Origin: Candidatus Eiseniibacteriota bacterium
GTDB lineage: Bacteria > Eisenbacteria > RBG-16-71-46 > CAIMUX01 > VGJL01
Direction of reading: 5' to 3'
DNA: 64,000 bases
Assembly (NCBI GenBank): GCA_963792585.1
Contig: CAWBWI010000003.1
Span: 352,001-416,000, forward strand
Shown: one piece after another, positions 52,002 through 64,000 of the stretch
Numbering within the stretch: the first letter of the stretch is position 1
How the letters are laid out: every line of letters starts with the position of its first letter
Notes under the pieces: generated by a model
What the model was told of the DNA's origin: nothing
The model's database searches: none
What the model saw: the letters and a program-made list of their open reading frames with translations, nothing else
Position numbers and translations under genes: made by a program

Positions 52002-52307
52002 GCGTCCGTAGCTCAATCGGAAAGAGAAGTCCCACATACGACGGCCCGAGCACGGTGACGCGGACTGAGAAGCGAGGATATGTCGGTAATGCCTTCTGAC
52101 GTCCGGGTCTGGGGGCAGGAGGAGAGCCGGAACCTCTCTTCCCGACGGATCCCCGGTATTCCCTTTCCTGCTTCGCCTGCCTTCAGTATCGGCGCCACCT
52201 TTCTGAAGGCACGCATGTCACGTGTGAATGCCTCTCGTCGTGGGAAGCTCAAGAGCACCGGCCTTATAATCCGGAGACTGCGGGTTCGAGCCCCGTCGGA
52301 CGCACCA
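52002..52307 (+). tRNA. tRNA gene with anticodon UAU (reads AUA), split by a 229-nt insertion in the D-arm
   Basis: Joining 52002-52026 to 52256-52307 gives a 77-nt cloverleaf: acceptor GCGTCCG/CGGACGC, D-arm GCTC-AATCGGAAA-GAGC, anticodon arm CCGGC-CTTATAA-TCCGG (TAT at 52265-52267), 5-nt variable loop, T-arm GCGGG-TTCGAGC-CCCGT, A73, encoded CCA. Confidence 0.85.
52027..52255 (+). ncRNA. Structured intervening sequence inside the tRNA (intron-like, class unknown)
   Basis: AAGAG is repeated at both junctions. The ends pair (TCCCA..CGACG with CGTCGTGGGA). Internal stems include TGCCTTCAG/CTGAAGGCA (52178-52211), GGCAGGA/TCCTGCT and CGGAC/GTCCG. Confidence 0.6.
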
Positions 52308-52357: not shown

Positions 52358-53422
52358 GTGAAACGACCGTCCACTCGCCAGGAGACTCTGGAGCGGGACG
52401 GCGCGCGGGAGAGAATCCCCGCGGGCGTGGATCCCTCGACGCGTCTCGTCGATCTGTCGCCCTACTACGGACACCTGGAGTGCTTTCAGGCTCTCCGTCC
52501 ACTCCTGGTGAAGACGAATCGCTTCACGTATGCGCCCAGCTACCCGCCGAACGAGCGGATGCAGAACACGTGGCTTTCGATCGCACTGGAAGGAATCGCG
52601 ACGCTTGCCGCGCATCGCACCGGGGAGGTCTGGGAGGATCTCGCGATCGTCGGCACGGGCAACGGCCTCGACGCCGTGGGGATCTCCCGAATCGTCCAGC
52701 CGAGGTCGATCATCGCCTCCGATATCCACCCGATCGCACTACAAGCGGCACGATGGAACATCGCCAACTATGTTGCGGAGGATTGCCGGGTCGCGGTTGT
52801 ACAAAGCGATCTCTTCGATGGATATCCGCCCGGGGCCGCATTCGACCTCATCTATGAGAATCTCCCGAACATCCCGGACGAGAAGGAGCTATTCGACGGG
52901 GTCCGCAGCGCGAGCTGTTTCGCGCCACGCGCCCAGCGGGTCGCCACGACGTTCGACCGGCATCTCCTGACCCTCCACCACGATTTTCTCATCCAAGCGC
53001 ACACTCGTCTCCGCGACTCCGGTTGGATCGTGGGTGTGATCGGAGGACGGATCCCGGTGCAGACGATTCACGAGCTGTTTGCGGACGCCGGGTATCGGTC
53101 CACGGTCGCCGCCTTCGGCCTCAAGATCCAGAGCGAGGGCGATGTGGTTCTGCCCGCCTATGCCGCAGCAGAGCAAGAGACCGGCGTCTCCTTCGTCTAT
53201 TACCATCCGCTCGAGGCGTGTCTTGCGATCGTGCGTGAGCTGTCGCAGCCGGAGGATCTTGCCGCGCGCGCGGAATACGCGGGACTGCTCACGGAACGAC
53301 TTCGGCCCCTCCAGATTCCGTCGACCGAAGCCGTACGCCTCCACGCAGGAGGAGCGGCCGTTTGCCACACGGTCTATGTCATGGCGGCTCAGCGAATCTG
53401 TGGTGGTCCCGCGAATGGGTGA
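52358..53422 (+). CDS. SAM-dependent methyltransferase, methionine S-methyltransferase (MmtN/MMT)-like
   Basis: IVGTGNGLDA, ASDIHP, FDLIYENLPNIP, IGGRIP, LKIQSE, VCHTVYV. GGAGGAG ribosome-binding site before the GTG. Confidence 0.75.
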   Translation: MKRPSTRQETLERDGARERIPAGVDPSTRLVDLSPYYGHLECFQALRPLLVKTNRFTYAPSYPPNERMQNTWLSIALEGIATLAAHRTGEVWEDLAIVGTGNGLDAVGISRIVQPRSIIASDIHPIALQAARWNIANYVAEDCRVAVVQSDLFDGYPPGAAFDLIYENLPNIPDEKELFDGVRSASCFAPRAQRVATTFDRHLLTLHHDFLIQAHTRLRDSGWIVGVIGGRIPVQTIHELFADAGYRSTVAAFGLKIQSEGDVVLPAYAAAEQETGVSFVYYHPLEACLAIVRELSQPEDLAARAEYAGLLTERLRPLQIPSTEAVRLHAGGAAVCHTVYVMAAQRICGGPANG

Positions 53423-54182
53423 AGCCGACTACTTCAGGGAAGCCTCCGTCATCGATGCGATGACGGCGGAGCATCGGATTCTGTGGCGAACCCTCTTCGT
53501 GGCCTGTGGGCCGCACATCCGACCCGGCATGCGGGTTCTGGATTTCGGTTGCGGCAACGGTGGGATGCTCGCCTATCTCATGCTTGGGGACGGGAAGAAG
53601 TGGCCCGGGTGTCACTGCTCCCTTGGGATGGGGATCGATCGTCCCGAGCTGAACGCTGTGCTGGCGATGGCCGGCGACCGGCTTGGCCGGGAGTTGCCCG
53701 TCGTGTTCACTTCCGCTTCTCCCCGCTCGTTCCCTGGCCAATTCGATCTCGCCCTTTCGCACGAGGTCATCTACCTCCTCTCGGACCTCGCCGAGACGTT
53801 CCAAGGGTTGCGCGCCGCGTTGAGGCCGGGCGGCGTGATCGCCCTGGCGACGGGATGCCACAGCGAGAACCTCCTCTATCCAAGATGGACGGAAGCTCTT
53901 GCGCGGGTGGGGGTGTGTGCCCACCCGTACGGGATCCCGGACTACGTTCGGGCGCTCCGCGATGCCGGCTTCGAGGATGTCGGCAGTGCCAGCATGCGGA
54001 TGGAGGTCGATGACTACGAGGAATGGCTAGAGGTCCGGGGAGACCCTGAGCCGAATCCCGAGTGGTTCTCCACGTCCGAGGAAGAGCGGCGGTATTACAC
54101 GGAGTTCGGCAAGACGCTGATCACCGCTCGCCGGGCGTTGGCCGAGGAGCCGTCGACTGTACCCCCGCGGGAAGGGCCGTGA
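53415..54182 (+). CDS. Class I SAM-dependent methyltransferase (255 aa)
   Basis: VLDFGCGNGG, FDLALSHEVIY, LRPGG. Overlaps both neighbours. Confidence 0.88.
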   Translation: MGEADYFREASVIDAMTAEHRILWRTLFVACGPHIRPGMRVLDFGCGNGGMLAYLMLGDGKKWPGCHCSLGMGIDRPELNAVLAMAGDRLGRELPVVFTSASPRSFPGQFDLALSHEVIYLLSDLAETFQGLRAALRPGGVIALATGCHSENLLYPRWTEALARVGVCAHPYGIPDYVRALRDAGFEDVGSASMRMEVDDYEEWLEVRGDPEPNPEWFSTSEEERRYYTEFGKTLITARRALAEEPSTVPPREGP

Positions 54183-56245
54183 CCGTCGCGCCCGACTATA
54201 TCCCCGAGACCATCGAGGCCAAGTGGCAACGGTTCTGGGAGGAGCGGGGGACGTTCCATGCGCATGCCTGCGGGGCGAGCAAGTTCTACTGCTACAATCC
54301 CGCGCCCTATGTCACCGGCACCCTTCATATGGGTCATGTCCGCAATTACACCTACGGTGATTTCCTCAGCAAGTTCCGGCGTCTTCACGGAGCGAACGTC
54401 CTCTACACGATCGGCTTCGACGCATTCGGCGTGCCCACAGAGGTGGCGGCCATGCGGAAACGGTTGGACCCGGCCGCCTGGACGGCCGGCTGCATCGGGG
54501 AGATGAAGAAGCAGCTTGTTCGAATGGGGTTTGGATTCGATTGGCGACGCTCCTTCTCCACGGCCGATGCGGACTACTACAAGTGGACCCAGTGGATCTT
54601 CATCGAGATGTTTCGGGAGGGCATCGTCTACGAACGGGAAGCGGAGACGCTCTGGTGTCCGCAGTGCGACATGGCCCTCGCCAAGTCGCTCACGGTCGAC
54701 GGCAGGTGCTTCCTGTGCAACATCGCAGTCGAGACGCGCGTCACAAGCCAGTGGTTCCTTCGCATCTCGCGCTATCTGGACCGTCTCAGGGATGATCTCG
54801 CCGAGGTCAGGGACCTCAACGGCCAGGCGCGTGCGGGACAGGAGAGTCTCCTCGCCTTCCGCAGCCTCTGGGGTGTCTGGTTGATCGAGCCGAAGACCGG
54901 GACCAAGGTTCTCGCCTGCATGGATTCTCCCGATGACTGGTCCAGGCATCTCGTGTTGGCGGTTCACCCTCAGGATTGGCCGACGCGACGGGCGCTCGCG
55001 GGGATCGCCGTCGAGCCGATCTCGGGCAGGTCCTTCGCAGTCGTCGTCGATCCTATGCTCGACTCGCTCTATCTGGATCAACCCGTGCTGAAGATTGTCC
55101 CGCGGGAGGGCGGAGCGCAGGCAATTGAACATGCGCCGGCGGATGGGATCTTCCCGCTCACGGTGAACGAACAGAAGGACTTCTCTGTTTCGCGCCAGCG
55201 ACTCTGGGGAACGCCCATCCCGATGGTCCGGTGTGAGACGTGCGGAGTCGTCCCGGTGGAGGCCGCGGATCTTCCCGTGCGGTTGCCGCGGATCGAAGCC
55301 GATGGCTCCGGACGGCTGCGGCGAACCGAACCCGGGTGGGACGTTCGCGCGTGCCCTTCATGCAAACGGCCGGCAATGCTCGATCCCCAGGTCATGGATT
55401 GCCACTTCGATGCGCTATGGCACTACTGGCGCCCCTGTGTTGGCTCCACGGCGGAGTTTCCTTTCGACTCGGACGAAGCCCGGTATTGGATGCCGGTCGA
55501 CCAGATCCAATTCGGCAGGGACACGATTCCGTTCCTCCTGACCCTGCGGCTGTTCACGAAGTTCCTGAAGGACCGCGGGCTCTCGGATTGCTCGGAGTTC
55601 GCCCGCGAGATGCTTGCGCACGGTCTGATCCTCATGGGCAATCGGAAGATGAGCAAGCACATCGGCAACGTCGTCGATCCGGAGCAAATGATCACCCGTT
55701 TCGGGGCGGACAGTCTTCGGTTCTATGTCCTCGCCAGGAGCGATCCCAGGAGCGATTATAGCTGGTCGGAGGCGAGCCTCGCGCGCTATCACGAGCTCTT
55801 GAAGCACTACTACGAGGATCTGGACCCTGAGACTTCGAGGGAGACAGCGGCGGCGGGAATGGAGGGATCGAAGACGGGATCCGCGGGGAAGTACCTGTCG
55901 ATCTTTCTCACAAAGGTGTTGCGCGAGGTGGAGGTACTGGAGTCGAGCGTTGAAAGTGGACGGTTCGACATCTACGCGCGGGCGGTTGCGCGAATCCTGG
56001 AAGCGCTTCATCTGTTCAAGGAGCGGTACTACACGCAGGCGGGATCGTGGGGGCGGGAAGCGTGGGGGAAGTGCGCGGAGCAGTCCATTCTCTACCTCGC
56101 CCCGATCGCGCCACACATCGCGGAGGAGTGCTGGGAGCGAAGCGGCCGAGCGCCGGGAGTCTTCGCGGGAGTGCGTTGGCCATCAGACGGCCCGATGGTC
56201 GTTCGAGATTTGGTGGAGGAAGCGAAGAGGCGGAGGCAGTCGTGA
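54179..56245 (+). CDS. Divergent leucyl-tRNA synthetase paralog (class Ia, 688 aa)
   Basis: IEAKWQRFW, PYVTGTLHMGHVRNY (HIGH), GFDAFG, YYKWTQWIF, SRQRLWGTPIP, KMSKHIGNVVDP (KMSKS), GADSLR, LAPIAPHIAEECW. GTGA overlap with the upstream gene. Confidence 0.9.
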   Translation: MTVAPDYIPETIEAKWQRFWEERGTFHAHACGASKFYCYNPAPYVTGTLHMGHVRNYTYGDFLSKFRRLHGANVLYTIGFDAFGVPTEVAAMRKRLDPAAWTAGCIGEMKKQLVRMGFGFDWRRSFSTADADYYKWTQWIFIEMFREGIVYEREAETLWCPQCDMALAKSLTVDGRCFLCNIAVETRVTSQWFLRISRYLDRLRDDLAEVRDLNGQARAGQESLLAFRSLWGVWLIEPKTGTKVLACMDSPDDWSRHLVLAVHPQDWPTRRALAGIAVEPISGRSFAVVVDPMLDSLYLDQPVLKIVPREGGAQAIEHAPADGIFPLTVNEQKDFSVSRQRLWGTPIPMVRCETCGVVPVEAADLPVRLPRIEADGSGRLRRTEPGWDVRACPSCKRPAMLDPQVMDCHFDALWHYWRPCVGSTAEFPFDSDEARYWMPVDQIQFGRDTIPFLLTLRLFTKFLKDRGLSDCSEFAREMLAHGLILMGNRKMSKHIGNVVDPEQMITRFGADSLRFYVLARSDPRSDYSWSEASLARYHELLKHYYEDLDPETSRETAAAGMEGSKTGSAGKYLSIFLTKVLREVEVLESSVESGRFDIYARAVARILEALHLFKERYYTQAGSWGREAWGKCAEQSILYLAPIAPHIAEECWERSGRAPGVFAGVRWPSDGPMVVRDLVEEAKRRRQS

Positions 56246-57042
56246 ATCGGGAAGTCATGTGCGACCACTTGGTTCGGTTGATCGACGATCTGGAACGGTG
56301 CTCCGGCGGGGCGCCGCGCGACCTGCTCCGCGCCGCGTTGTGCATCGAGCACGTCGTGATGTCCGATCTACTGCCTCCGGAGGAGGAGGACGCCGTCTTT
56401 GCGGACCCGAGGATCGCCGTGCGGGCGTCCGGTTGTCAGAGGATCTTCTCGGATCTCGAGAGCACCATCGAGCGGAGCATGGCCGAGGTTGTGCGGCTCG
56501 GCGGGGCCGAAACGACTTGGGCCCGGGAGAACGTGAGCCAGCACTACATTGCGCGTTACGAGTACCTTTCCCAGTGCGAGATCGAGCTGGCGCGGATGGG
56601 ACCGGAGGATCGTGTCCTCTTCATCGGGAGCGGGTACCTGCCGATCACGGCGTTCGAATACGTCCGTCAGTCCGGCTGCAAGGTTGACTGCGCCGACTTC
56701 GTCCCGGAAGCGATCGATTGCGCCCGAAAGATCACGGAACGGATCGGGATGACGGAGCGTGTGCGGTTCTTCCAGACGCGAGGGGAGCAGCACGATCCCT
56801 CCCCATACGACGTCATCCTCGTAGGTGTGCTTGCACTGCCGAAACGGGCGATCCTGTCCCACCTGGATGCGGGGGCGAAGGGCGGATGCCGTGTGCTGTG
56901 TCGGACCACCTACGGGCTGCGGCAACTCGTCTACCAGCAAGCGTCCTACGAGGTGCGGAGCCTCCGTCGACTCGTTCCGGGAGAACGAAGCGTGGCCCGT
57001 GGGGAGCGGGTCATTTCTGCGGAGCTCTTGAGGGCTTCTTGA
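56242..57042 (+). CDS. Nicotianamine synthase-like (CntL-like) SAM-dependent aminocarboxypropyl transferase (266 aa)
   Basis: YIARYEYL..CE, VLFIGSGYLPITA, YDVILVGVLA.PK..IL, CRTTYGLRQLVY. GTGA overlap with the synthetase. Confidence 0.8.
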   Translation: MNREVMCDHLVRLIDDLERCSGGAPRDLLRAALCIEHVVMSDLLPPEEEDAVFADPRIAVRASGCQRIFSDLESTIERSMAEVVRLGGAETTWARENVSQHYIARYEYLSQCEIELARMGPEDRVLFIGSGYLPITAFEYVRQSGCKVDCADFVPEAIDCARKITERIGMTERVRFFQTRGEQHDPSPYDVILVGVLALPKRAILSHLDAGAKGGCRVLCRTTYGLRQLVYQQASYEVRSLRRLVPGERSVARGERVISAELLRAS

Positions 57043-57306: not shown

Positions 57307-58029
57307 ATGATGAGGAAGGTCGCCCTGCTCCTTGTTCTGAGTTCCATTTTCGGAGGCGGCGCGCTCGCCGCCAATCCCAGCCTGAGTGCGGGAGGTGGCG
57401 GCAGCCCGAACGTCCTCAACTCCGGCCGAGAAGTTATCTGGAGTGAGCCGCCTGACCTCGAAGGTCTGATCGCCTCGTCGGAAGTCATCGGGCAATTCGC
57501 CCTTGAGACGGAAATCGCCAACGACTTCTATATCTCCTGGGATACCTGTATCGGCGGCGCTCGCTGGTGGGGCGGTTATTACAACAACAACGGCTGTAGC
57601 GACATTGGCATCGCGACAAACTGGAACCTCCGATTCTACGATGACGGCGGCTGCGTTCCGTTGACGACTCTTTCCGAGACGGTGGGCGCCTTCGCAAACG
57701 AGACTTTCATTTACTGCCAGGGCGGGTTCTACCCGGTCTTCCAGTACGAAGCCTACACATCATACGTCTACATCACGGCGAACACCCTGTACTGGTTCGG
57801 CGCACAGGCATCCGATCACGCGTTTCCGCCGCAGGTGGGCCGTATCGCCTCCGCATGGGTCGTCGGCTGCGACACGGTGTTCAAGAGTGCCTACTTCTCG
57901 TACCCCGACTGGACGCCCGGCATCGACGTGTTCGGTGTCGCCTTCGATGCCAGCCAGGAGTTCGAGAACTGGTGCATAGTTCCGACCGTGACGACCACGT
58001 GGGGCGCCGTGAAGGGGCTCTACCGGTAG
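57307..58029 (+). CDS. Array copy 1: secreted protein with C-terminal TTWGAVKGLYR motif
   Basis: AAGGAGG ribosome-binding site, signal peptide, WSEPPDL, IANDF, RWWGGY, YWF. One ATA at 57976-57978. Confidence 0.9.
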   Translation: MMRKVALLLVLSSIFGGGALAANPSLSAGGGGSPNVLNSGREVIWSEPPDLEGLIASSEVIGQFALETEIANDFYISWDTCIGGARWWGGYYNNNGCSDIGIATNWNLRFYDDGGCVPLTTLSETVGAFANETFIYCQGGFYPVFQYEAYTSYVYITANTLYWFGAQASDHAFPPQVGRIASAWVVGCDTVFKSAYFSYPDWTPGIDVFGVAFDASQEFENWCIVPTVTTTWGAVKGLYR

Positions 58030-58333
58030 GTCCGGCGAATGGGGAGGTCCGCTGTGGCGCAGCGGGCTTCAGGTGGCACACAAAGAGTTTGGTGGCGTTG
58101 GGGCGCTCCCGTCGATGCGGCGGGGGCGCTTCTTGCATCCGGCCGCGGCGGCCCTCGGTGGACTCCATCCCCGGGACGGTAGATAATCGACGGCAACAAT
58201 TCCCGACGGCTCTTGGGTCGGGGGTGCAGGCGGCTCGGCGGTCAAACGAGGACGGGCACCGCACCGTGACGCCCGCCTGGTCCCGCGCGTGATCGTCGTT
58301 GTGTGCTGTGACAAACCACAGGAGGGAGTCCTC

Positions 58334-59047
58334 ATGATGATACAGATCGCCCTTGTCCTGAGTCTGGTCGTTGCCAGCGGAGCGCTTGCCATCAACCCAT
58401 CCCTGAGCGGGGGCGGTGGCGGTACGAATGTTCTGAACTCCGGTCGCGAAGTCGTCTGGAGCGAGCCACCGAACCTCGACGGTTTGATCGGGTCGTCGGA
58501 GGTTATTTGGGAGTTCTATGTCGTGACGGAACTTGCCAACGATTTCTTCCTCACTACGAACCACGGCCTCGACATCGCTCGCTGGTGGGGTGGCTATTTT
58601 TACAACAGCAGTTGCGGCGATGTCGGTGTCGCCACAAATTGGAACCTAACATTCTACGATGATGTCGGTTGCATACCGGAACATGTGCTTTACGAGCGTA
58701 TGGGCGTCGATGCGAACGAGACTTTCGTCTATTGCCAAAGCGACGTCTACCCGATCTTCAGCTACGAGGTCGCCGATCTGAACTTCACAGCTCAGGCGAA
58801 TACCCGATACTGGTTCGTCGCGCAGGCAGCTGACCATACGTTCCCGCCCCAGGTAGGTCGCGTCGCTTCCGCCGGAGTCGTCGGCTGCGAGACCGTCTTC
58901 AGAGGGTCCTACTTCTCGTACAACTACTGGACTCCCGTTATCGATGTGTTCGGCGTGGCGTTTGATGCCAGCCAGGAGTTCGAGGAGTATCACATAGTCC
59001 CTACTGAAAGGACCACGTGGGGCGCCGTGAAGGAGCTCTACCGGTAG
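58334..59047 (+). CDS. Array copy 2 (most divergent)
   Basis: Same motifs, ending TTWGAVKELYR. ATA at 58994-58996, and also at 58340 and 58673. Confidence 0.9.
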   Translation: MMIQIALVLSLVVASGALAINPSLSGGGGGTNVLNSGREVVWSEPPNLDGLIGSSEVIWEFYVVTELANDFFLTTNHGLDIARWWGGYFYNSSCGDVGVATNWNLTFYDDVGCIPEHVLYERMGVDANETFVYCQSDVYPIFSYEVADLNFTAQANTRYWFVAQAADHTFPPQVGRVASAGVVGCETVFRGSYFSYNYWTPVIDVFGVAFDASQEFEEYHIVPTERTTWGAVKELYR

Positions 59048-59350
59048 GTCCGGCGAATGGAGAGGTCCGCTGTGGCGCAGCGGGCTTCAGGTGGCACACA
59101 AAGAGTTTGGTGGCGATGAGGCGCTTCCGTCGTTGCGGCGGGGCGCTTCTCACGTCCAGTCGCCACAGGCTTGGGTGGACATCGGCCTCGCAGGAGCAGA
59201 TACTCGTAGGCGGCGAATCCCTGCGGCTCTCGAGCCGGGGGATCCGACGGACTGCTGGTCGAGGGAGCCCGCCACCCACCGACCGTCGGTCCGGCCATGG
59301 ACCTGTTCGTCGTTGAGTCTCGTGACAGCCGAAAGGAGGGAATCCTCGCT

Positions 59351-60079
59351 ATGAGGAAGGTCGCCCTTGTCCTTGTCCTGAGCTGCGTCGCCGGGGGCGG
59401 CGCGCTGGCCGTCAACCCGAGCATCATGGCCGGCGGAGAGGGCACGCAGAACGTCCTAGACTCCGGTCGAGATCCCGTCTGGAGTGAGCCGCCCGATCTA
59501 GAGGGTCTGATCGCTTCGTCGGAAGTTATCGGGCAGGTCGGCCTCGAGACGGAAATCGCAAATGACTTCTACATCGACCATGACGAGTACATCAGTATCG
59601 CCCGCTGGTGGGGCGGATACTACAACAACAACGGCTGCAGTGACATCGGGTACGGCACGAACTGGAATCTGCGCCTCTACGATGACTTGGGCTGTGTTCC
59701 GGGGTCAGTGCTTTCCGAGACTCTAGGGCTGTCGGTGATCGAGGCCTTCGTATACTGCCAGGCTGGCCTCTACCCGGTCTTCGAATACTGGGCATGCGTC
59801 GAGTTCTGGGTCGCGGGGAATACATTGTACTGGTTCGGTGCACAAGCATCCGATCACACGTTCCCACCGCAGGTCGGTCGCGTGGCCTCTGCCGGAGTCG
59901 TCGGCTGCGACTCCGTATTCAAGAGCGCCTACTTCTCGTATCCGGATTGGACGCCCGGTATCGACGTCTTCGGGGTCGCATTCGACGCGAGTCAGGAATT
60001 CGGCAATGGTATCTGCATAGACGGACCTGTCCCTAATCAGCGGACCACGTGGGGCGCCGTGAAGGGGCTCTACCGGTAG
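59351..60079 (+). CDS. Array copy 3
   Basis: Same motifs. One ATA at 60017-60019. Confidence 0.9.
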   Translation: MRKVALVLVLSCVAGGGALAVNPSIMAGGEGTQNVLDSGRDPVWSEPPDLEGLIASSEVIGQVGLETEIANDFYIDHDEYISIARWWGGYYNNNGCSDIGYGTNWNLRLYDDLGCVPGSVLSETLGLSVIEAFVYCQAGLYPVFEYWACVEFWVAGNTLYWFGAQASDHTFPPQVGRVASAGVVGCDSVFKSAYFSYPDWTPGIDVFGVAFDASQEFGNGICIDGPVPNQRTTWGAVKGLYR

Positions 60080-60381
60080 GTCCGGCGAATGGGGAGGTCC
60101 GCTGTGGCGCAGCGGGCTTCAGGTGGCACACAAAGAGTTTGGTGGCGATGAGGCGCTTCCGCCGTTGCGGCGGGGGCGCTTCTTGCGTCCAGCCGCACAG
60201 GCTTCGGTGGACGTCGGCCTCACAGGAGCAGATACTCGTAGGCGGCGAATCAAAGCGGTCACTGAGCCGGGGGATCCGACGGACTGCTGGTCGAAGGAGC
60301 CCGCCTCCCACCAACCGTCGGTCCGGCCATGGATCTGTTCGCCGTTAGTCTCGTGACAGCCGAAAGGAGGGAATCCTCGCC

Positions 60382-61098
60382 ATGAGGAAGGTCGCCCTTG
60401 TCCTTGTCCTGAGCTTCGTCGCCACAGGCGGCGCGCTCGCCATCAACCCGGGCATCATGGCTGGCGGGGGGGGCACGCAGAACGTCCTCAACTCCAGCCG
60501 AGATGTTGTCTGGAGTGAGCCGCCCGACCTCGAAGGTCTGATTGCCTCGTCAGAAGTCATCGGGCAATTGGCTCTCGAGACGGAAATCGCAAACGATTTC
60601 TACCTTCCCTGGGACTACTGGATCTGCGTCGCCCGCTGGTGGGGTGGTTACTACAACAACAACGGCTGCGGCGATGTCGGCATCGCGACGAACTGGAACG
60701 TTCGGTTCTACGATGACGGCGGCTGCGTGCCTCTTACCCTGCTGAACGAGACGCTCGGCGCGTTCGCGAACGAGACCAGCGTCTATTGCCAGGATGGCTT
60801 CTACCCGATCTTTAGGTACGAAGTTGACGTCAGCATGCCGATCACCGGCAACACCCTGTACTGGTTCGGCGCGCAGGCTGCCGACCATGCGTTCCCGCCG
60901 CAGTGCGGCCGCGTTGCCTCCGGCTCCGTCGTCGGTTGCGACACGGTGTTCAAGAGTGCCTACTTCTCGTACTCCGACTGGACGCCCGGCATCGACGTGT
61001 TCGGTGTTGCGTTCGACGCCAGCCAGGAGTTCGTGATCGGGTGCATAGTTCCAACCGTCACGACCACGTGGGGCGCCGTGAAGGGGCTCTACCGGTAG
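60382..61098 (+). CDS. Array copy 4
   Basis: Same motifs. One ATA at 61045-61047. Confidence 0.9.
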   Translation: MRKVALVLVLSFVATGGALAINPGIMAGGGGTQNVLNSSRDVVWSEPPDLEGLIASSEVIGQLALETEIANDFYLPWDYWICVARWWGGYYNNNGCGDVGIATNWNVRFYDDGGCVPLTLLNETLGAFANETSVYCQDGFYPIFRYEVDVSMPITGNTLYWFGAQAADHAFPPQCGRVASGSVVGCDTVFKSAYFSYSDWTPGIDVFGVAFDASQEFVIGCIVPTVTTTWGAVKGLYR

Positions 61099-61406
61099 GT
61101 CCGGCGAATAGAGAGGTCCGCTGTGGCGCAGCGGGCTTCAGGTGGCACATAAAGAGTTTGGTGGCGATGGGGCGCTCCCGTCGATGCGGCGGGGGCGCTT
61201 CCTGCATCCGCCGCGCAGGACGACGTTTGACCCCCCGTCCCAATGAGCGGATACTCATAGGCGGCAGATCCTACCCGGCATGTGTGCCGACTGGATCTGA
61301 CGGTCCTGCGATTGTGGTGAGACCCGCCGCGTGGGCAGCAGCCAGTCCGGTCCGGGACTTGTTCGCACGTGAGTTCCGCAACAAGCGAAAGGAGGGAATC
61401 CTCGCC

Positions 61407-62129
61407 ATGAGGAAGGTCGCCCTTGTCCTTGCGCTGAGTTTCGTCGCCGCAGGCGGTGCACTCGCCGTCAATCCGAGCATCATGGCCGGTGGGGGGGGCA
61501 CGCAGAACGTCCTCAACTCCGGCCGTGACGTGGTCTGGGGTGAGCCGCCCGATCTCGATGGCCTCATCGCCTCGTCAGAAGTCATCGGACAACTCGCTCT
61601 CGAGACGGAAATCGCAAATGACTTCTGGGTTGATCATGACGGCTCCATCGATTGTGCCTGCTGGTGGGGAGGGTACTACAATAACAACGGCTGCGGTGAC
61701 ATCGGTATCGCTACGAACTGGAACCTCCGGTTCTACGATGACGGTGGCTGCGTTCCGCTGTCGGTCCTCGCCGAGACGGTGGGCGCCTTCGCTTACGAGA
61801 CCAGTGTGTACTGTCAGGGTGGGCTCTACCCGGTCTTCCAGTACGAAGCTGGCGTCGACTTCCAGATCACGGGGAACACATTGTACTGGTTCGGCGCGCA
61901 GGCATCCGACCACACGTTTCCGCCGCAGGTAGGCCGTATCGCCTCCGCAGGGGTCGTCGGCTGCGACTCCGTGTTCAAGAGTGCCTACTTCTCGTACCCC
62001 GACTGGACGCCTGGTATCGACGTATTCGGTGTCGCCTTCGATGCGAGTCAGGAGTTTAGGGAATACTGCATACTACCTGTCGGCACGCAGCGGACCACGT
62101 GGGGCGCCGTGAAGGGGCTCTACCGGTAG
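61407..62129 (+). CDS. Array copy 5
   Basis: Same motifs. One ATA at 62070-62072. Confidence 0.9.
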   Translation: MRKVALVLALSFVAAGGALAVNPSIMAGGGGTQNVLNSGRDVVWGEPPDLDGLIASSEVIGQLALETEIANDFWVDHDGSIDCACWWGGYYNNNGCGDIGIATNWNLRFYDDGGCVPLSVLAETVGAFAYETSVYCQGGLYPVFQYEAGVDFQITGNTLYWFGAQASDHTFPPQVGRIASAGVVGCDSVFKSAYFSYPDWTPGIDVFGVAFDASQEFREYCILPVGTQRTTWGAVKGLYR

Positions 62130-62432
62130 GTCCGGCGAATGGGGAGGTCCGCTGTGGCGCAGCGGGCTTCAGGTGGCACACAGAGAGTTTGGTGGCGATG
62201 AGGCGCTTCCGCCGTTGCGGCGGGGGCGCTTCTCACGTCCGGCCGCAGCAGGCTTCGGTGGACATCGGCCTCACAGGAGCAGATACTCGTAGGCGGCGAA
62301 TCCCTGCGGCTCTCGGGCCGGGGGATCCGACGGACTGCTGGTCGAGGAGCCCGCCTCCCACCGACCCTCGGTCCGGCCATGGACCTGCTCGTCGTTGGGT
62401 CTCGTGACAGCCGAAAGGAGGGAATCCTCGCC

Positions 62433-63158
62433 ATGAGGAAGGTCGCCCTTGTCCTTGTCCTGAGCTTCGTCGCCACAGGCGGCGCGCTCGCCATCAACCC
62501 GAGCCTGAGTGCGGGGGGTGGCGGCAGCCCGAACGTCCTCAACTCCGGCCGATACGTCATCTGGAGTGAGCCGCCTGACCTCGAAGGTCTGATCGCCTCG
62601 TCGGAAGTCATCGGGCAATTCGCCCTCGAGACGGAAATCGCCAACGACTTCTACGTCCCCTGGGATACCTGTGTTGGTCTCGCTCGCTGGTGGGGAGGCT
62701 ACTACAATAACGCCGGTTGCGGTGACATCGGTGTCGCTACGAACTGGAACCTCCGATTCTACGATGACGGTGGCTGCGTTCCGTTGTCGATCCTGTCCGA
62801 GACGGTGGGGGTCTTCGCGAACGAGACCTTCATCTACTGCCAGGGCGGGTTCTATCCGGTCTACCAGTACGAAACCGCCGCAGTATACGTCGCCGTCACG
62901 GCGAACACGCTGTACTGGTTCGGCGCGCAGGCATCGGATCACGCGTTTCCGCCGCAGGTGGGCCGTATCGCTTCTGCATCGGTCGTCGGTTGCGACACGG
63001 TGTTCAAGAGTGCCTACTTCTCGTATCCCGACTGGACGCCTGGCATCGACGTGTTCGGTGTCGCCTTCGATGCCAGTCAGGAATTCGAGAACTACAATTG
63101 CGGCATAGTTCCAACTCAGAAGACCACGTGGGGCGCCGTGAAGGGGCTCTACCGGTAG
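62433..63158 (+). CDS. Array copy 6
   Basis: Same motifs. One ATA at 63105-63107. Confidence 0.9.
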   Translation: MRKVALVLVLSFVATGGALAINPSLSAGGGGSPNVLNSGRYVIWSEPPDLEGLIASSEVIGQFALETEIANDFYVPWDTCVGLARWWGGYYNNAGCGDIGVATNWNLRFYDDGGCVPLSILSETVGVFANETFIYCQGGFYPVYQYETAAVYVAVTANTLYWFGAQASDHAFPPQVGRIASASVVGCDTVFKSAYFSYPDWTPGIDVFGVAFDASQEFENYNCGIVPTQKTTWGAVKGLYR

Positions 63159-63462
63159 GTCGGGCGAATGGAGAGGTCCGCTGTGGCGCAGCGGACTTCA
63201 GGTGGCACACAGAGAGTTTGGTGGCGTTGGGGCGTCCCTGTCGTTGTGACGGGGGCGCTTCATACGTCCAGCCGCCACAGGCTTCGTTGGACATCGGCCA
63301 CACAGGAGCAGATACTCGTGGGCGGCGAATCCCTGCGGCTCTCGGGCCGGGGGATCCGACGGACTGCTGGTCGAGGGAGTCCGCCTCCCACCGACCGTCG
63401 GTCCGGCCATGGACCTGCTCGTCGTTGGGTCTCGTGACAGCCGAAAGGAGGGAATCCTCGCC

Positions 63463-64000
63463 ATGAGGAAGGTCGCCCTTGTCCTTGTCCTGAGCTTCGT
63501 CGCCACAGGCGGCGCGCTCGCCGTCAACCCGAGCCTCATGGCCGGTGGGGGGGGCACGCAGAACGTCCTCAACTCCGGCCGAGATACCTACTGGAGTGAG
63601 CCGCCCGATCTGGAGGGTCTGATCGCGTCCTCGGAAGTCATCGGGCAGTTCGGCCTCGAGACGGAAATCGCAAACGACTTCTATCTCACCCAGAACGCCA
63701 CTGTCTGGGCCGTCTGGTGGGGTGGGTACTACAACAACAATGGTTGTGGCGACATCGGTGTTGCAACGAACTGGAATCTTCGGTACTACGACGACGGTGG
63801 CTGTGTTCCGCTGAACACGGTTTCCGAAGGTCTCGGCGCGTATGCGAACGAGAACTTCGTCTATTGTCAGGGCGGGTTCTACCCGATCTTCCGGTACACG
63901 GCCGACGTCTGCTGCGCGGTTCTCGCGAATACGCTGTACTGGTTCGGCGCGCAGGCAGCCGATCACGCGTTCCCGCCTCAGGTCGGCCGCGTAGCCTCTG
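63463..64000 (+). CDS. Array copy 7, truncated by the window end
   Basis: ATGAGGAAGGTCGCC start and an open frame with WSEPPDLEG, IANDF, WWGGY and YWFGAQ to the end of the window. Confidence 0.88.
   Translation, partial: MRKVALVLVLSFVATGGALAVNPSLMAGGGGTQNVLNSGRDTYWSEPPDLEGLIASSEVIGQFGLETEIANDFYLTQNATVWAVWWGGYYNNNGCGDIGVATNWNLRYYDDGGCVPLNTVSEGLGAYANENFVYCQGGFYPIFRYTADVCCAVLANTLYWFGAQAADHAFPPQVGRVAS

Follow-up and report, generated by a model that had tools for sequence, protein, structure and literature searches.

A candidate operon for site-specific recoding of AUA codons in a Candidatus Eiseniibacteriota genome

We analyzed a window of 64,000 nucleotides (nt), by which we mean the whole stretch under study, from the genome of a Candidatus Eiseniibacteriota bacterium (G000; assembly GCA_963792585.1, contig CAWBWI010000003.1, positions 352,001 to 416,000). 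In this window a putative tRNA gene with a giant D-loop is followed by genes for two methyltransferases (MT1 and MT2), a paralogue of leucyl-tRNA synthetase (LeuRS) and a nicotianamine synthase (NAS)-like enzyme, and then by an array of seven related genes with a TWG tail, each carrying an in-frame ATA codon and followed by an element in its 3' untranslated region (UTR) (Table 1). Our preferred reading, built on sequence comparison and predicted structure, is that chosen AUA codons in such genes are probably recoded, site by site, to a non-standard residue.

Table 1. Features of the window and of the related Ralstonia locus (positions in the window unless a locus is named).
Feature	Position	Strand	Basis or remark
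tRNA, anticodon UAU (52265-52267), encoded CCA end, 238-nt D-loop (52015-52252)	52002..52307	+	stems, Rfam
Candidate guide GCGCCACC in insert hairpin loop	52192..52199	+	complementary to GGTGGCGC / GTGGCGC of target 3'-UTR elements
MT1, S-adenosylmethionine (SAM)-dependent methyltransferase, nearest solved fold MmtN (methionine S-methyltransferase)	52358..53422	+	AlphaFold, Foldseek
MT2, class I methyltransferase	53415..54182	+	Pfam Methyltransf_23
LeuRS paralogue, 688 residues, editing motifs and C-terminal domain lost, pocket rebuilt	54179..56245	+	TIGR00396, alignments, model
NAS-like aminocarboxypropyl transferase	56242..57042	+	Pfam NAS, E 9.5e-12
Array gene 1	57307..58029	+	signal-peptide-like start, TWG tail; ATA 57976
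3'-UTR element 1	58030..58146	+	TGGCG-loop hairpin, two more GTGGC(G/A), second hairpin ending GCGCTTC
Array gene 2	58334..59047	+	ATA 58994 (also 58340, 58673)
3'-UTR element 2	59048..59165	+	nhmmer profile
Array gene 3	59351..60079	+	ATA 60017
3'-UTR element 3	60080..60197	+	nhmmer profile
Array gene 4	60382..61098	+	ATA 61045
3'-UTR element 4	61099..61212	+	nhmmer profile
Array gene 5	61407..62129	+	ATA 62070
3'-UTR element 5	62130..62247	+	nhmmer profile
Array gene 6	62433..63158	+	ATA 63105
3'-UTR element 6	63159..63277	+	nhmmer profile
Array gene 7	63463..64000	+	continues to G000 C3:416179; ATA (-19) and UTR element beyond the window
Ralstonia solanacearum CP023017 cluster	L253 8875-17728		LeuRS paralogue and tailoring enzymes
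Ralstonia unannotated D-loop-extended tRNA(UGG)	L253 17257-17443

Array genes, their ATA codons and the 3'-UTR element

The original prediction had placed an in-frame ATA 17 to 20 residues from the C-terminus of all six complete array genes, and the window bears this out: the codon stands at residues -17, -17, -20, -17, -19 and -17 in copies 1 to 6. The accompanying codon counts hold as well, ATA being 1 of 14 Ile codons in copy 1 and the sole ATA in each of copies 3 to 6 (copy 3 reads ATC-TGC-ATA), with the two extra occurrences in copy 2. Across the seven copies the linker from SQEF to TTWG varies in length and sequence, and each linker has one ATA. Over a crude set of 3691 predicted genes, ATA accounts for 1532 of 69264 Ile codons (2.2%), or 1.09 per 1000 codons overall, which makes it rare here; as claimed, it is absent from the four enzyme genes of the window (0 of 22, 0 of 8, 0 of 28 and 0 of 15 Ile codons). 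Two further details concern the surroundings of the codon: the preceding codon is TGC or GGC in 6 of the 7 copies, and the internal ATA of copy 2 at 58673 lies in a Cys-ATA-Pro context that resembles the junction sites. Copies 1 and 2 matched no Pfam or NCBIfam family.

A nearly fixed distance to the tail had also been proposed. The constraint on the site stands, but the fixed distance does not: in paralogues with extra Cys-rich modules the ATA is found at -60 to -64, -62 or -98, and its constant feature is its place directly after the folded domain, together with the 3'-UTR element. This element, of ~115 nt, lies directly 3' of each array gene. In its hairpin the TGGCG loop is invariant while both strands of the stem vary (CTG/CAG, CAG/CTG, CCG/CGG), and two or more GTGGC(G/A) motifs occur besides the hairpin. 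Sigma-70-like sites at 58159-58187 and 59176-59204, just 3' of the elements, suggest a separate promoter for each array gene.

An nhmmer profile trained solely on the six UTRs of the window was run genome-wide and gave 14 sites, all 14 of them downstream of TWG-tail genes with an ATA in the last 100 codons. In 13 of the 14 genes the ATA falls within the last 75 codons (background, 343 of 3691 genes), and in 13 of 14 it lies at the end of the folded domain. The eight sites held out from training belong to copy 7, to four paralogues on contig C6 (ATA 3-5 codons past SQEF, at -60 to -64), to two proteins of other families (ATA at the domain end, at -62 and -98) and to one paralogue with the ATA inside its domain. 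Conversely, 11 other close paralogues that lack the junction ATA had no match to the UTR element; plain hairpins close three of these genes, whose identity to copy 1 is 72-74%. Their printed tails have no Ile directly at the junction, so the free use of ATC or ATT there, which would have spoken against the original prediction, was not found. A further 11 TWG genes carry an ATA in the last 70 codons without the element, and there we take the codon as ordinary Ile. The UTR element and the ATA travel together.

Within the window the copies show 64-88% identity to copy 1, and their flanking DNA is shared as well. Since the array copies are not independent, the chance test rests on the second array on C6, on the two unrelated proteins and on a second genome, G005 (below). 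With these taken together, the six array ATA codons are real and not due to chance, and the codon is under selection.

The tRNA, the synthetase and the enzymes of the operon

The UAU tRNA closes all seven acceptor pairs, all four D-stem pairs and four anticodon-stem pairs, and forcing the cloverleaf costs ~1 kcal/mol (-121.3 against -122.4). Because its D-loop is 238 nt long, ARAGORN did not detect the gene and the Rfam tRNA match (E 2.5e-4) covers only its 3' part. The tRNA has A37, A38 and A73, as expected of tRNA-Ile(UAU), and its anticodon matches the array ATA, as the original prediction had pointed out. It carries U4-A69 and G29-C41, against C4-G69 and C29-G41 in the host tRNA-Ile(GAU), pairs which we take to be IleRS identity elements; its acceptor arm resembles the tRNA-Arg genes of the host. 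The host also has a CAU tRNA beside tilS, its own tilS and an ordinary LeuRS, and the operon is therefore extra. The tRNA-SeC of the genome is a separate gene (C1:683832). A second UAU tRNA, at C3:75042, looks ordinary; the 90 kb around it are foreign in composition, and it was left out of account as a probable contaminant. The stretches C3:1-90000 and C5:1-35000 have a GC content of 70% and 39-56%, compared with ~65%, and probably reflect a chimeric assembly.

Across 35 genomes of the order, the 3' half of the UAU tRNA was found only in G000 and G005; four matches to it in G008 were not recovered as split tRNAs. A split-tRNA finder applied to 411 loci returned three systems and four spurious calls in two phage tRNA clusters.

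Read data came from 4 of 23 listed runs, with contigs from a relative that differs by ~6-9%. Over the D-loop insert, two RNA runs gave a depth of 4228 and 8364, compared with ~8 over the synthetase; contig depth being unsuited to ranking genes, we take this as no more than a hint. The four substitutions listed in the insert all fall at positions unpaired in the predicted fold. A rival account holds that the RNA is not an ordinary elongator. The insert might be an intron that is spliced out to leave a 76-nt tRNA, for which the AAG repeats at both of its ends would allow a canonical D-loop, or the RNA might serve as an aminoacyl carrier or a tmRNA-like adaptor that tags or releases the chain at ATA; large D-loop domains do look hard to accommodate in the ribosome. 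We consider this quite unlikely. Searches against Rfam models listed no intron family at E<=1 or E<=0.5, no joint across the insert is listed in two RNA runs and one RNA contig spans the insert to 52260 (contigs only, a weak indication), and the reading frames run on in frame into conserved tails.

The LeuRS paralogue scores 391 bits against TIGR00396, under the cut-off of 548.4. It retains the class I motifs HMGH and KMSKH and an aspartate equivalent to D80, and lacks the TTRPDT and GTG editing motifs and the last ~60 residues; a structural model of it has a predicted local distance difference test score (pLDDT) of 89.6. By alignment count, its pocket differs from that of the T. thermophilus enzyme at M40 (P41), F41 (A42), F501 (H409), Y507 (H415), Y535 (I443), E540/H541 (R447/D448) and H545 (F452); we take M40, F41, F501, Y507, H541 and H545 to be leucine-pocket residues. 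The side-chain pocket is now polar (H409, H415, R447, D448). The available text of 10.1101/2024.11.27.625662 names M40, L41, Y499 and Y527 of E. coli LeuRS as positions randomised for retargeting.

Twelve proteins at 45-89% identity form a distinct synthetase family, and a profile search without a word index agrees. They are known as proteins, with linkage to MT1 and NAS presumed from matching lengths of the longest contig. The CP1 editing domain PF13603 is missing in these 12 and present in the 108 other listed matches, and the rebuilt pocket residues are nearly fixed in 14 of 14 full-length members, with D81, HMGH and KMSK kept.

The enzymes encoded beside the synthetase have their best matches among proteins acting on small molecules. 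The NAS-like protein passed PF03059 (45.3 bits; gathering cut-off 27.1) and matches thermonicotianamine synthase (E 2e-12) and CntL (E 7e-5). MT1 was modelled at pLDDT 84, and MmtN takes Foldseek ranks 1-9 (against VIA, Z 21.8, root-mean-square deviation 3.4, 237 aligned; next unrelated fold, Z 19.5); at 19% identity to MmtN it is a remote homologue only. The best Protein Data Bank match of MT2 is 5wp5, a phosphoethanolamine N-methyltransferase (phmmer, E 8e-10). The likeness to thermonicotianamine synthase, CntL and MmtN is thus remote, in sequence and in fold, and the homologues in the window adjoin a tRNA and a synthetase instead of transport genes. An azetidine-2-carboxylate synthase (AzeJ/VioH) was also considered for MT1; 8RYD-8RYG are not among the matches listed, and MmtN ranks first. 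A fungal protein from Aspergillus hancockii (P0158) is 32% identical to MT1 and keeps the YENLPN and KxQxE motifs.

A private synthetase and tRNA could also recode the same ATA with a standard amino acid, as deliberate mistranslation, with the enzymes modifying the tRNA, the loaded amino acid or the protein. For such an arrangement ProRSx/tRNAProX of Streptomyces offers a precedent in the available text of PMC10404621 and PMC9437257, the RNA and protein methyltransferases HemK2, RsmC and TrmM follow close behind MmtN in the MT1 fold search (Z 18-19.5), and MT2 has weak CmoB-like matches. We regard it as unlikely, for the small-molecule matches of MT1, MT2 and the NAS-like protein point elsewhere, as do at least 20 other short LeuRS paralogues with differing pockets, and the ProRSx type keeps its parental amino acid (PMC9437257, available text), whereas the pocket of the LeuRS paralogue is rebuilt.

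A second genome and the Ralstonia system

MT1 was matched in 2 of 206 genomes of the phylum (a tally that includes the unpublished genome G079), namely G000 and G005. The G005 operon has the same gene order, with a UAU tRNA in the same place whose D-loop is 183 nt long and unrelated in sequence; this tRNA has C4-G69 but G29-C41. Both genomes have tilS. The G005 tRNA (L084 14030-14279) has C instead of U at position 33, and a TGGGAAG segment near the 3' end of the insert is common to the two tRNAs.

The TWG tail pattern itself is widespread, with 979 matches in 34 of the 35 genomes of the order. We counted in-frame ATA codons 15-26 codons before the stop of TWG genes, with the frame read from row lengths and one of two overlapping matches reported, so that a few may be missed: 7 of 97 genes had one in G000, 5 of 69 in G005 and 7 of 813 in the 33 other genomes of the order, which lack the operon. 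The codon is therefore rare in the TWG linkers of genomes without the operon; had it been common in those of unrelated TWG proteins, this would have told against the original prediction. The enrichment is significant in G005 alone (Fisher test, p 0.0013) and in both genomes with the array counted once (p 0.011). The UTRs of G005 have a motif of their own, [AG]CTTCCC, following 6 of the 10 TWG genes that bear an ATA and 1 of the remaining 59 (p 1e-5) and sitting, by eye, in a hairpin loop; its 6-mer CTTCCC follows 9 of 10 and 5 of 59. In this genome the pattern is repeated on four contigs.

The meaning of ATA in the rest of the genome was assessed on 337 G000-G005 gene pairs covering ~0.8 Mb of G005. 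Columns with ATA in G000 align to Ile in 39 of 72 cases and to I/V/L/M in 68 of 72 (for ATC, 56% and 90%), and columns with ATA in G005 do so in 15 of 29 and 22 of 29. Against G004 the G000 codon gave Ile in 4 of 21 and I/V/L/M in 19 of 21 columns, too few to outweigh the G005 result. A global reassignment of ATA was rejected, the conserved columns being still Ile-like; since ATA is Ile-like genome-wide, any recoding must be site-specific or partial.

The 68 of 72 columns, which resemble those of ATC, also favour another view: the array ATA would still mean Ile, the tRNA and the UTR element would only set the speed or amount of translation, as a pause or a rare-codon switch, and the enzymes would serve the synthesis of some unconnected metabolite. 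Bacteria in which a U34 tRNA-Ile occurs next to tilS are indeed described (PMC4237120, available text). This view seems to us distinctly improbable, as it leaves unexplained a rebuilt, editing-less synthetase next to the tRNA, acceptor and anticodon-stem pairs that are not those of tRNA-Ile, the position at the domain end, and the Ralstonia codon bias described below. A ribosome pause at the ATA, which the original prediction proposed to look for, is less convincing than a changed amino acid.

The third system comes from Ralstonia. An editing-less LeuRS paralogue is found there with a tRNA that has a 119-nt D-loop, the anticodon UGG and the same T stem. An 81-residue open reading frame (ORF) after the tRNA uses CCA for 9 of its 11 Pro codons, whereas CCA makes up 15 of 281 Pro codons across the locus's 11 annotated genes (p 2e-10). 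Codon and anticodon change together, because Ralstonia pairs UGG with this CCA-rich adjacent ORF; the match between tRNA and target codon thus recurs in G005 (UAU/ATA) and, with another codon, in Ralstonia (UGG/CCA). On megaplasmids the synthetase adjoins, by annotation, methyltransferases, an AurF-family protein, a glutathione-synthetase-like protein and an aminotransferase. We found this tRNA in 19 records, and 19 Ralstonia records have the synthetase. The 81-residue ORF resembles a precursor peptide and has three CCCTGG repeats downstream, and the stretch upstream of the cluster (L253 291-6293) contains PigD- and PigE-like genes as well as a fluoride riboswitch.

These results, with those of the UTR profile, largely refute the idea that ATA and the UTR element are functionless passengers of a tandem duplication, which the similarity of the array copies and of their flanking DNA could suggest. 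Around the ATA the linker differs from copy to copy in length and in sequence, codon and element occur together in two unrelated proteins, G005 repeats the pattern with another UTR motif, and Ralstonia does so with another codon; we judge this account very improbable.

Profile search revealed at least 20 further short LeuRS paralogues with different pockets, the Ralstonia type among them, and each such group may define another system. This radiation consists mostly of proteins of 700-790 residues with a distinct rebuilt pocket per group, one of them from Solirubrobacterales (P0057, P0184-P0186, P0194, P0195, P0197, P0198, P0204, P0208, P0209, P0215, P0217-P0219, P0230, P0237, P0238, P0241, P0249, P0253, P0257, P0279, P0289, P0290, P0304, P0313). 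In the search for more loci, a contig scan and a second metagenome scan gave best segments of 28-46% identity and no in-frame family motif, the NAS-like query returned nothing in metagenomes, and viral scans and a broad paralogue profile returned no new system. Four matches in a plasmid collection were rejected as ordinary LeuRS or ordinary contexts.

Proposed mechanism and relation to known systems

Under the recoding that we favour, the NAS-like enzyme and the two methyltransferases would make from SAM a polar, probably zwitterionic, non-standard amino acid X, judging by family chemistry most simply a methylated N-(3-amino-3-carboxypropyl) compound. The LeuRS paralogue would load X onto the UAU tRNA. 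The single-stranded guide in the D-loop would probably pair with the element after the stop codon and hold X-tRNA on the mRNA, where the tethered tRNA could outcompete the normal lysidine tRNA at the nearby AUA, other ATA codons remaining Ile. X would then be placed in secreted proteins where the folded domain meets the Cys-rich or TWG tail, in many cases next to Cys or Gly, and might there, speculatively, bind metal or form a cross-link.

The pairing step draws on complementary segments in each system. The G000 insert contains GCGCCAC(C), the complement of the UTR sequence GTGGCGC, and such a complement arose in 1.45% of dinucleotide shuffles; the five central bases of the candidate guide are predicted unpaired with probability ~1.0. 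The G005 insert contains TGGGAAGT, the complement of the UTR sequence ACTTCCCA (0.4% of shuffles; 8.6% for the 6-mer), likewise predicted unpaired, and its best-pairing window is CTGGGAAGTACGGC (permutation p 0.002). The Ralstonia insert has CCAGGG twice (18% of shuffles), the complement of CCCTGG, which with three copies is the most repeated 6-mer of the Ralstonia UTR and whose complement occurs in neither other insert. No specific signal emerged when the insert was paired with coding sequence flanking the ATA.

Several results weigh against this scheme. In the G000 duplex scan the top window was insert position 47, not the proposed guide, and the foreign G005 insert outscored the G000 insert on the near-identical array UTRs; of the top 10 G000 7-mers only 2 have complements in the insert, and the complement of the G005 motif is also present in the G000 insert. 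The Ralstonia duplex energy is unexceptional, with 18 of 120 control UTRs and 19 of 200 shuffles equally good, and the Ralstonia cloverleaf is not the minimum-energy fold. The enriched UTR motifs were picked after looking. Seven linker ATA codons occur in frame in genomes without the operon, one linker ATA of G005 (L235/L415) lacks [AG]CTTCCC, and the element-bearing gene C3:658802 of G000 has its ATA inside the domain (-57). DNA context comes from two genomes of the Eisenbacteria type and one Ralstonia type, and the identity of X is a guess. Finally, we know of no precedent for a D-loop domain of 120-240 nt passing through the ribosome. With near-identical UTRs confounding the G000 scan and a Ralstonia energy that does not stand out, pairing between the tRNA insert and the target 3'-UTR is likely but unproven. 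Recoding to a non-standard residue with the guide-UTR step included is a narrower claim, which we hold tentatively, at somewhat under an even chance.

The system is a multi-gene one that matches no described family, failing a defining test of each of the selenocysteine, pyrrolysine and ProRSx systems. Selenocysteine (Sec) relies on a dedicated tRNA (SelC), on SelB and on the selenocysteine insertion sequence (SECIS), an mRNA structure located in the 3'-UTR in archaea and eukaryotes. The operon resembles it in combining a dedicated tRNA, biosynthetic enzymes and a cis mRNA structure, with a probable second meaning of one codon in chosen genes, and here too the cis structure is restricted to codon-bearing genes (14 of 14 element sites). 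In contrast to Sec, the codon is the sense codon ATA and not UGA, the operon has no tRNA-Sec and no elongation-factor gene, targeting seems to reside in a domain of the tRNA itself, and loading would be by the LeuRS paralogue and not by SerRS. The pyrrolysine system, pylTSBCD, joins tRNA, own synthetase and amino-acid-making enzymes in one operon. The window shares this layout; unlike pyrrolysine, it has a class I, LeuRS-derived synthetase, a sense codon, a giant D-loop, a cis element, and NAS-like and MmtN-like enzymes.

ProRSx, described in Streptomyces and Kitasatospora, keeps Pro specificity and causes proteome-wide substitutions in E. coli according to the available text of PMC10404621 and PMC9437257. 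A synthetase paralogue adjoining a tRNA with a foreign sense anticodon is likewise seen in the window, in G005 and in Ralstonia, but here the pocket is rebuilt, as judged from sequence, biosynthetic enzymes are attached and the codon is concentrated at UTR-marked sites. The available text of PMC9437257 further describes LeuRS-I of Sulfolobaceae and LeuRS2 of Halobacteria, duplicated enzymes with disrupted editing or C-terminal domain that keep Leu and tRNA-Leu binding with poor or no charging; it names no private tRNA for them, in contrast to the one found here. The U34 tRNA-Ile(UAU) of Mycoplasma mobile, Lactobacillus and Planctomyces, in some genera present alongside tilS, is treated as an IleRS-served Ile tRNA in the available text of PMC4237120. 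It shares the UAU anticodon with the tRNA of the window, which differs in its Arg-like acceptor arm, its lack of the host tRNA-Ile pairs and its 238-nt D-loop. No description of such a system was found in the full-text literature, a coverage that leaves out most subscription journals.

We also entertain, as possible rather than probable, that the three systems represent a natural family of code extensions, in which a D-loop-guided tRNA, a retargeted class I synthetase and a locally made amino acid act only on mRNAs with a complementary UTR. To our knowledge, only two amino acids beyond the standard twenty are inserted by the ribosome, both at stop codons. If the reading is true, this would be a new natural extension of the genetic code, adding to selenocysteine and pyrrolysine an amino acid inserted at a sense codon, and the many LeuRS paralogues with different pockets would each encode further amino acids. 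A tRNA that selects mRNAs by base pairing would let one codon carry two meanings within a cell in a new way, and could serve directly as a tool for recoding sense codons at chosen sites. Secreted target proteins would be wrongly translated in databases, and standard tRNA finders would miss this class of tRNA. Because the locus names the tRNA, the synthetase, the biosynthetic enzymes, the target sites and the cis element, the proposal is directly testable.

Elsewhere in G000, two class I synthetase genes (C3:268485-270298 and C4:58957-60593) appear split across frames, probably through long-read indel errors.

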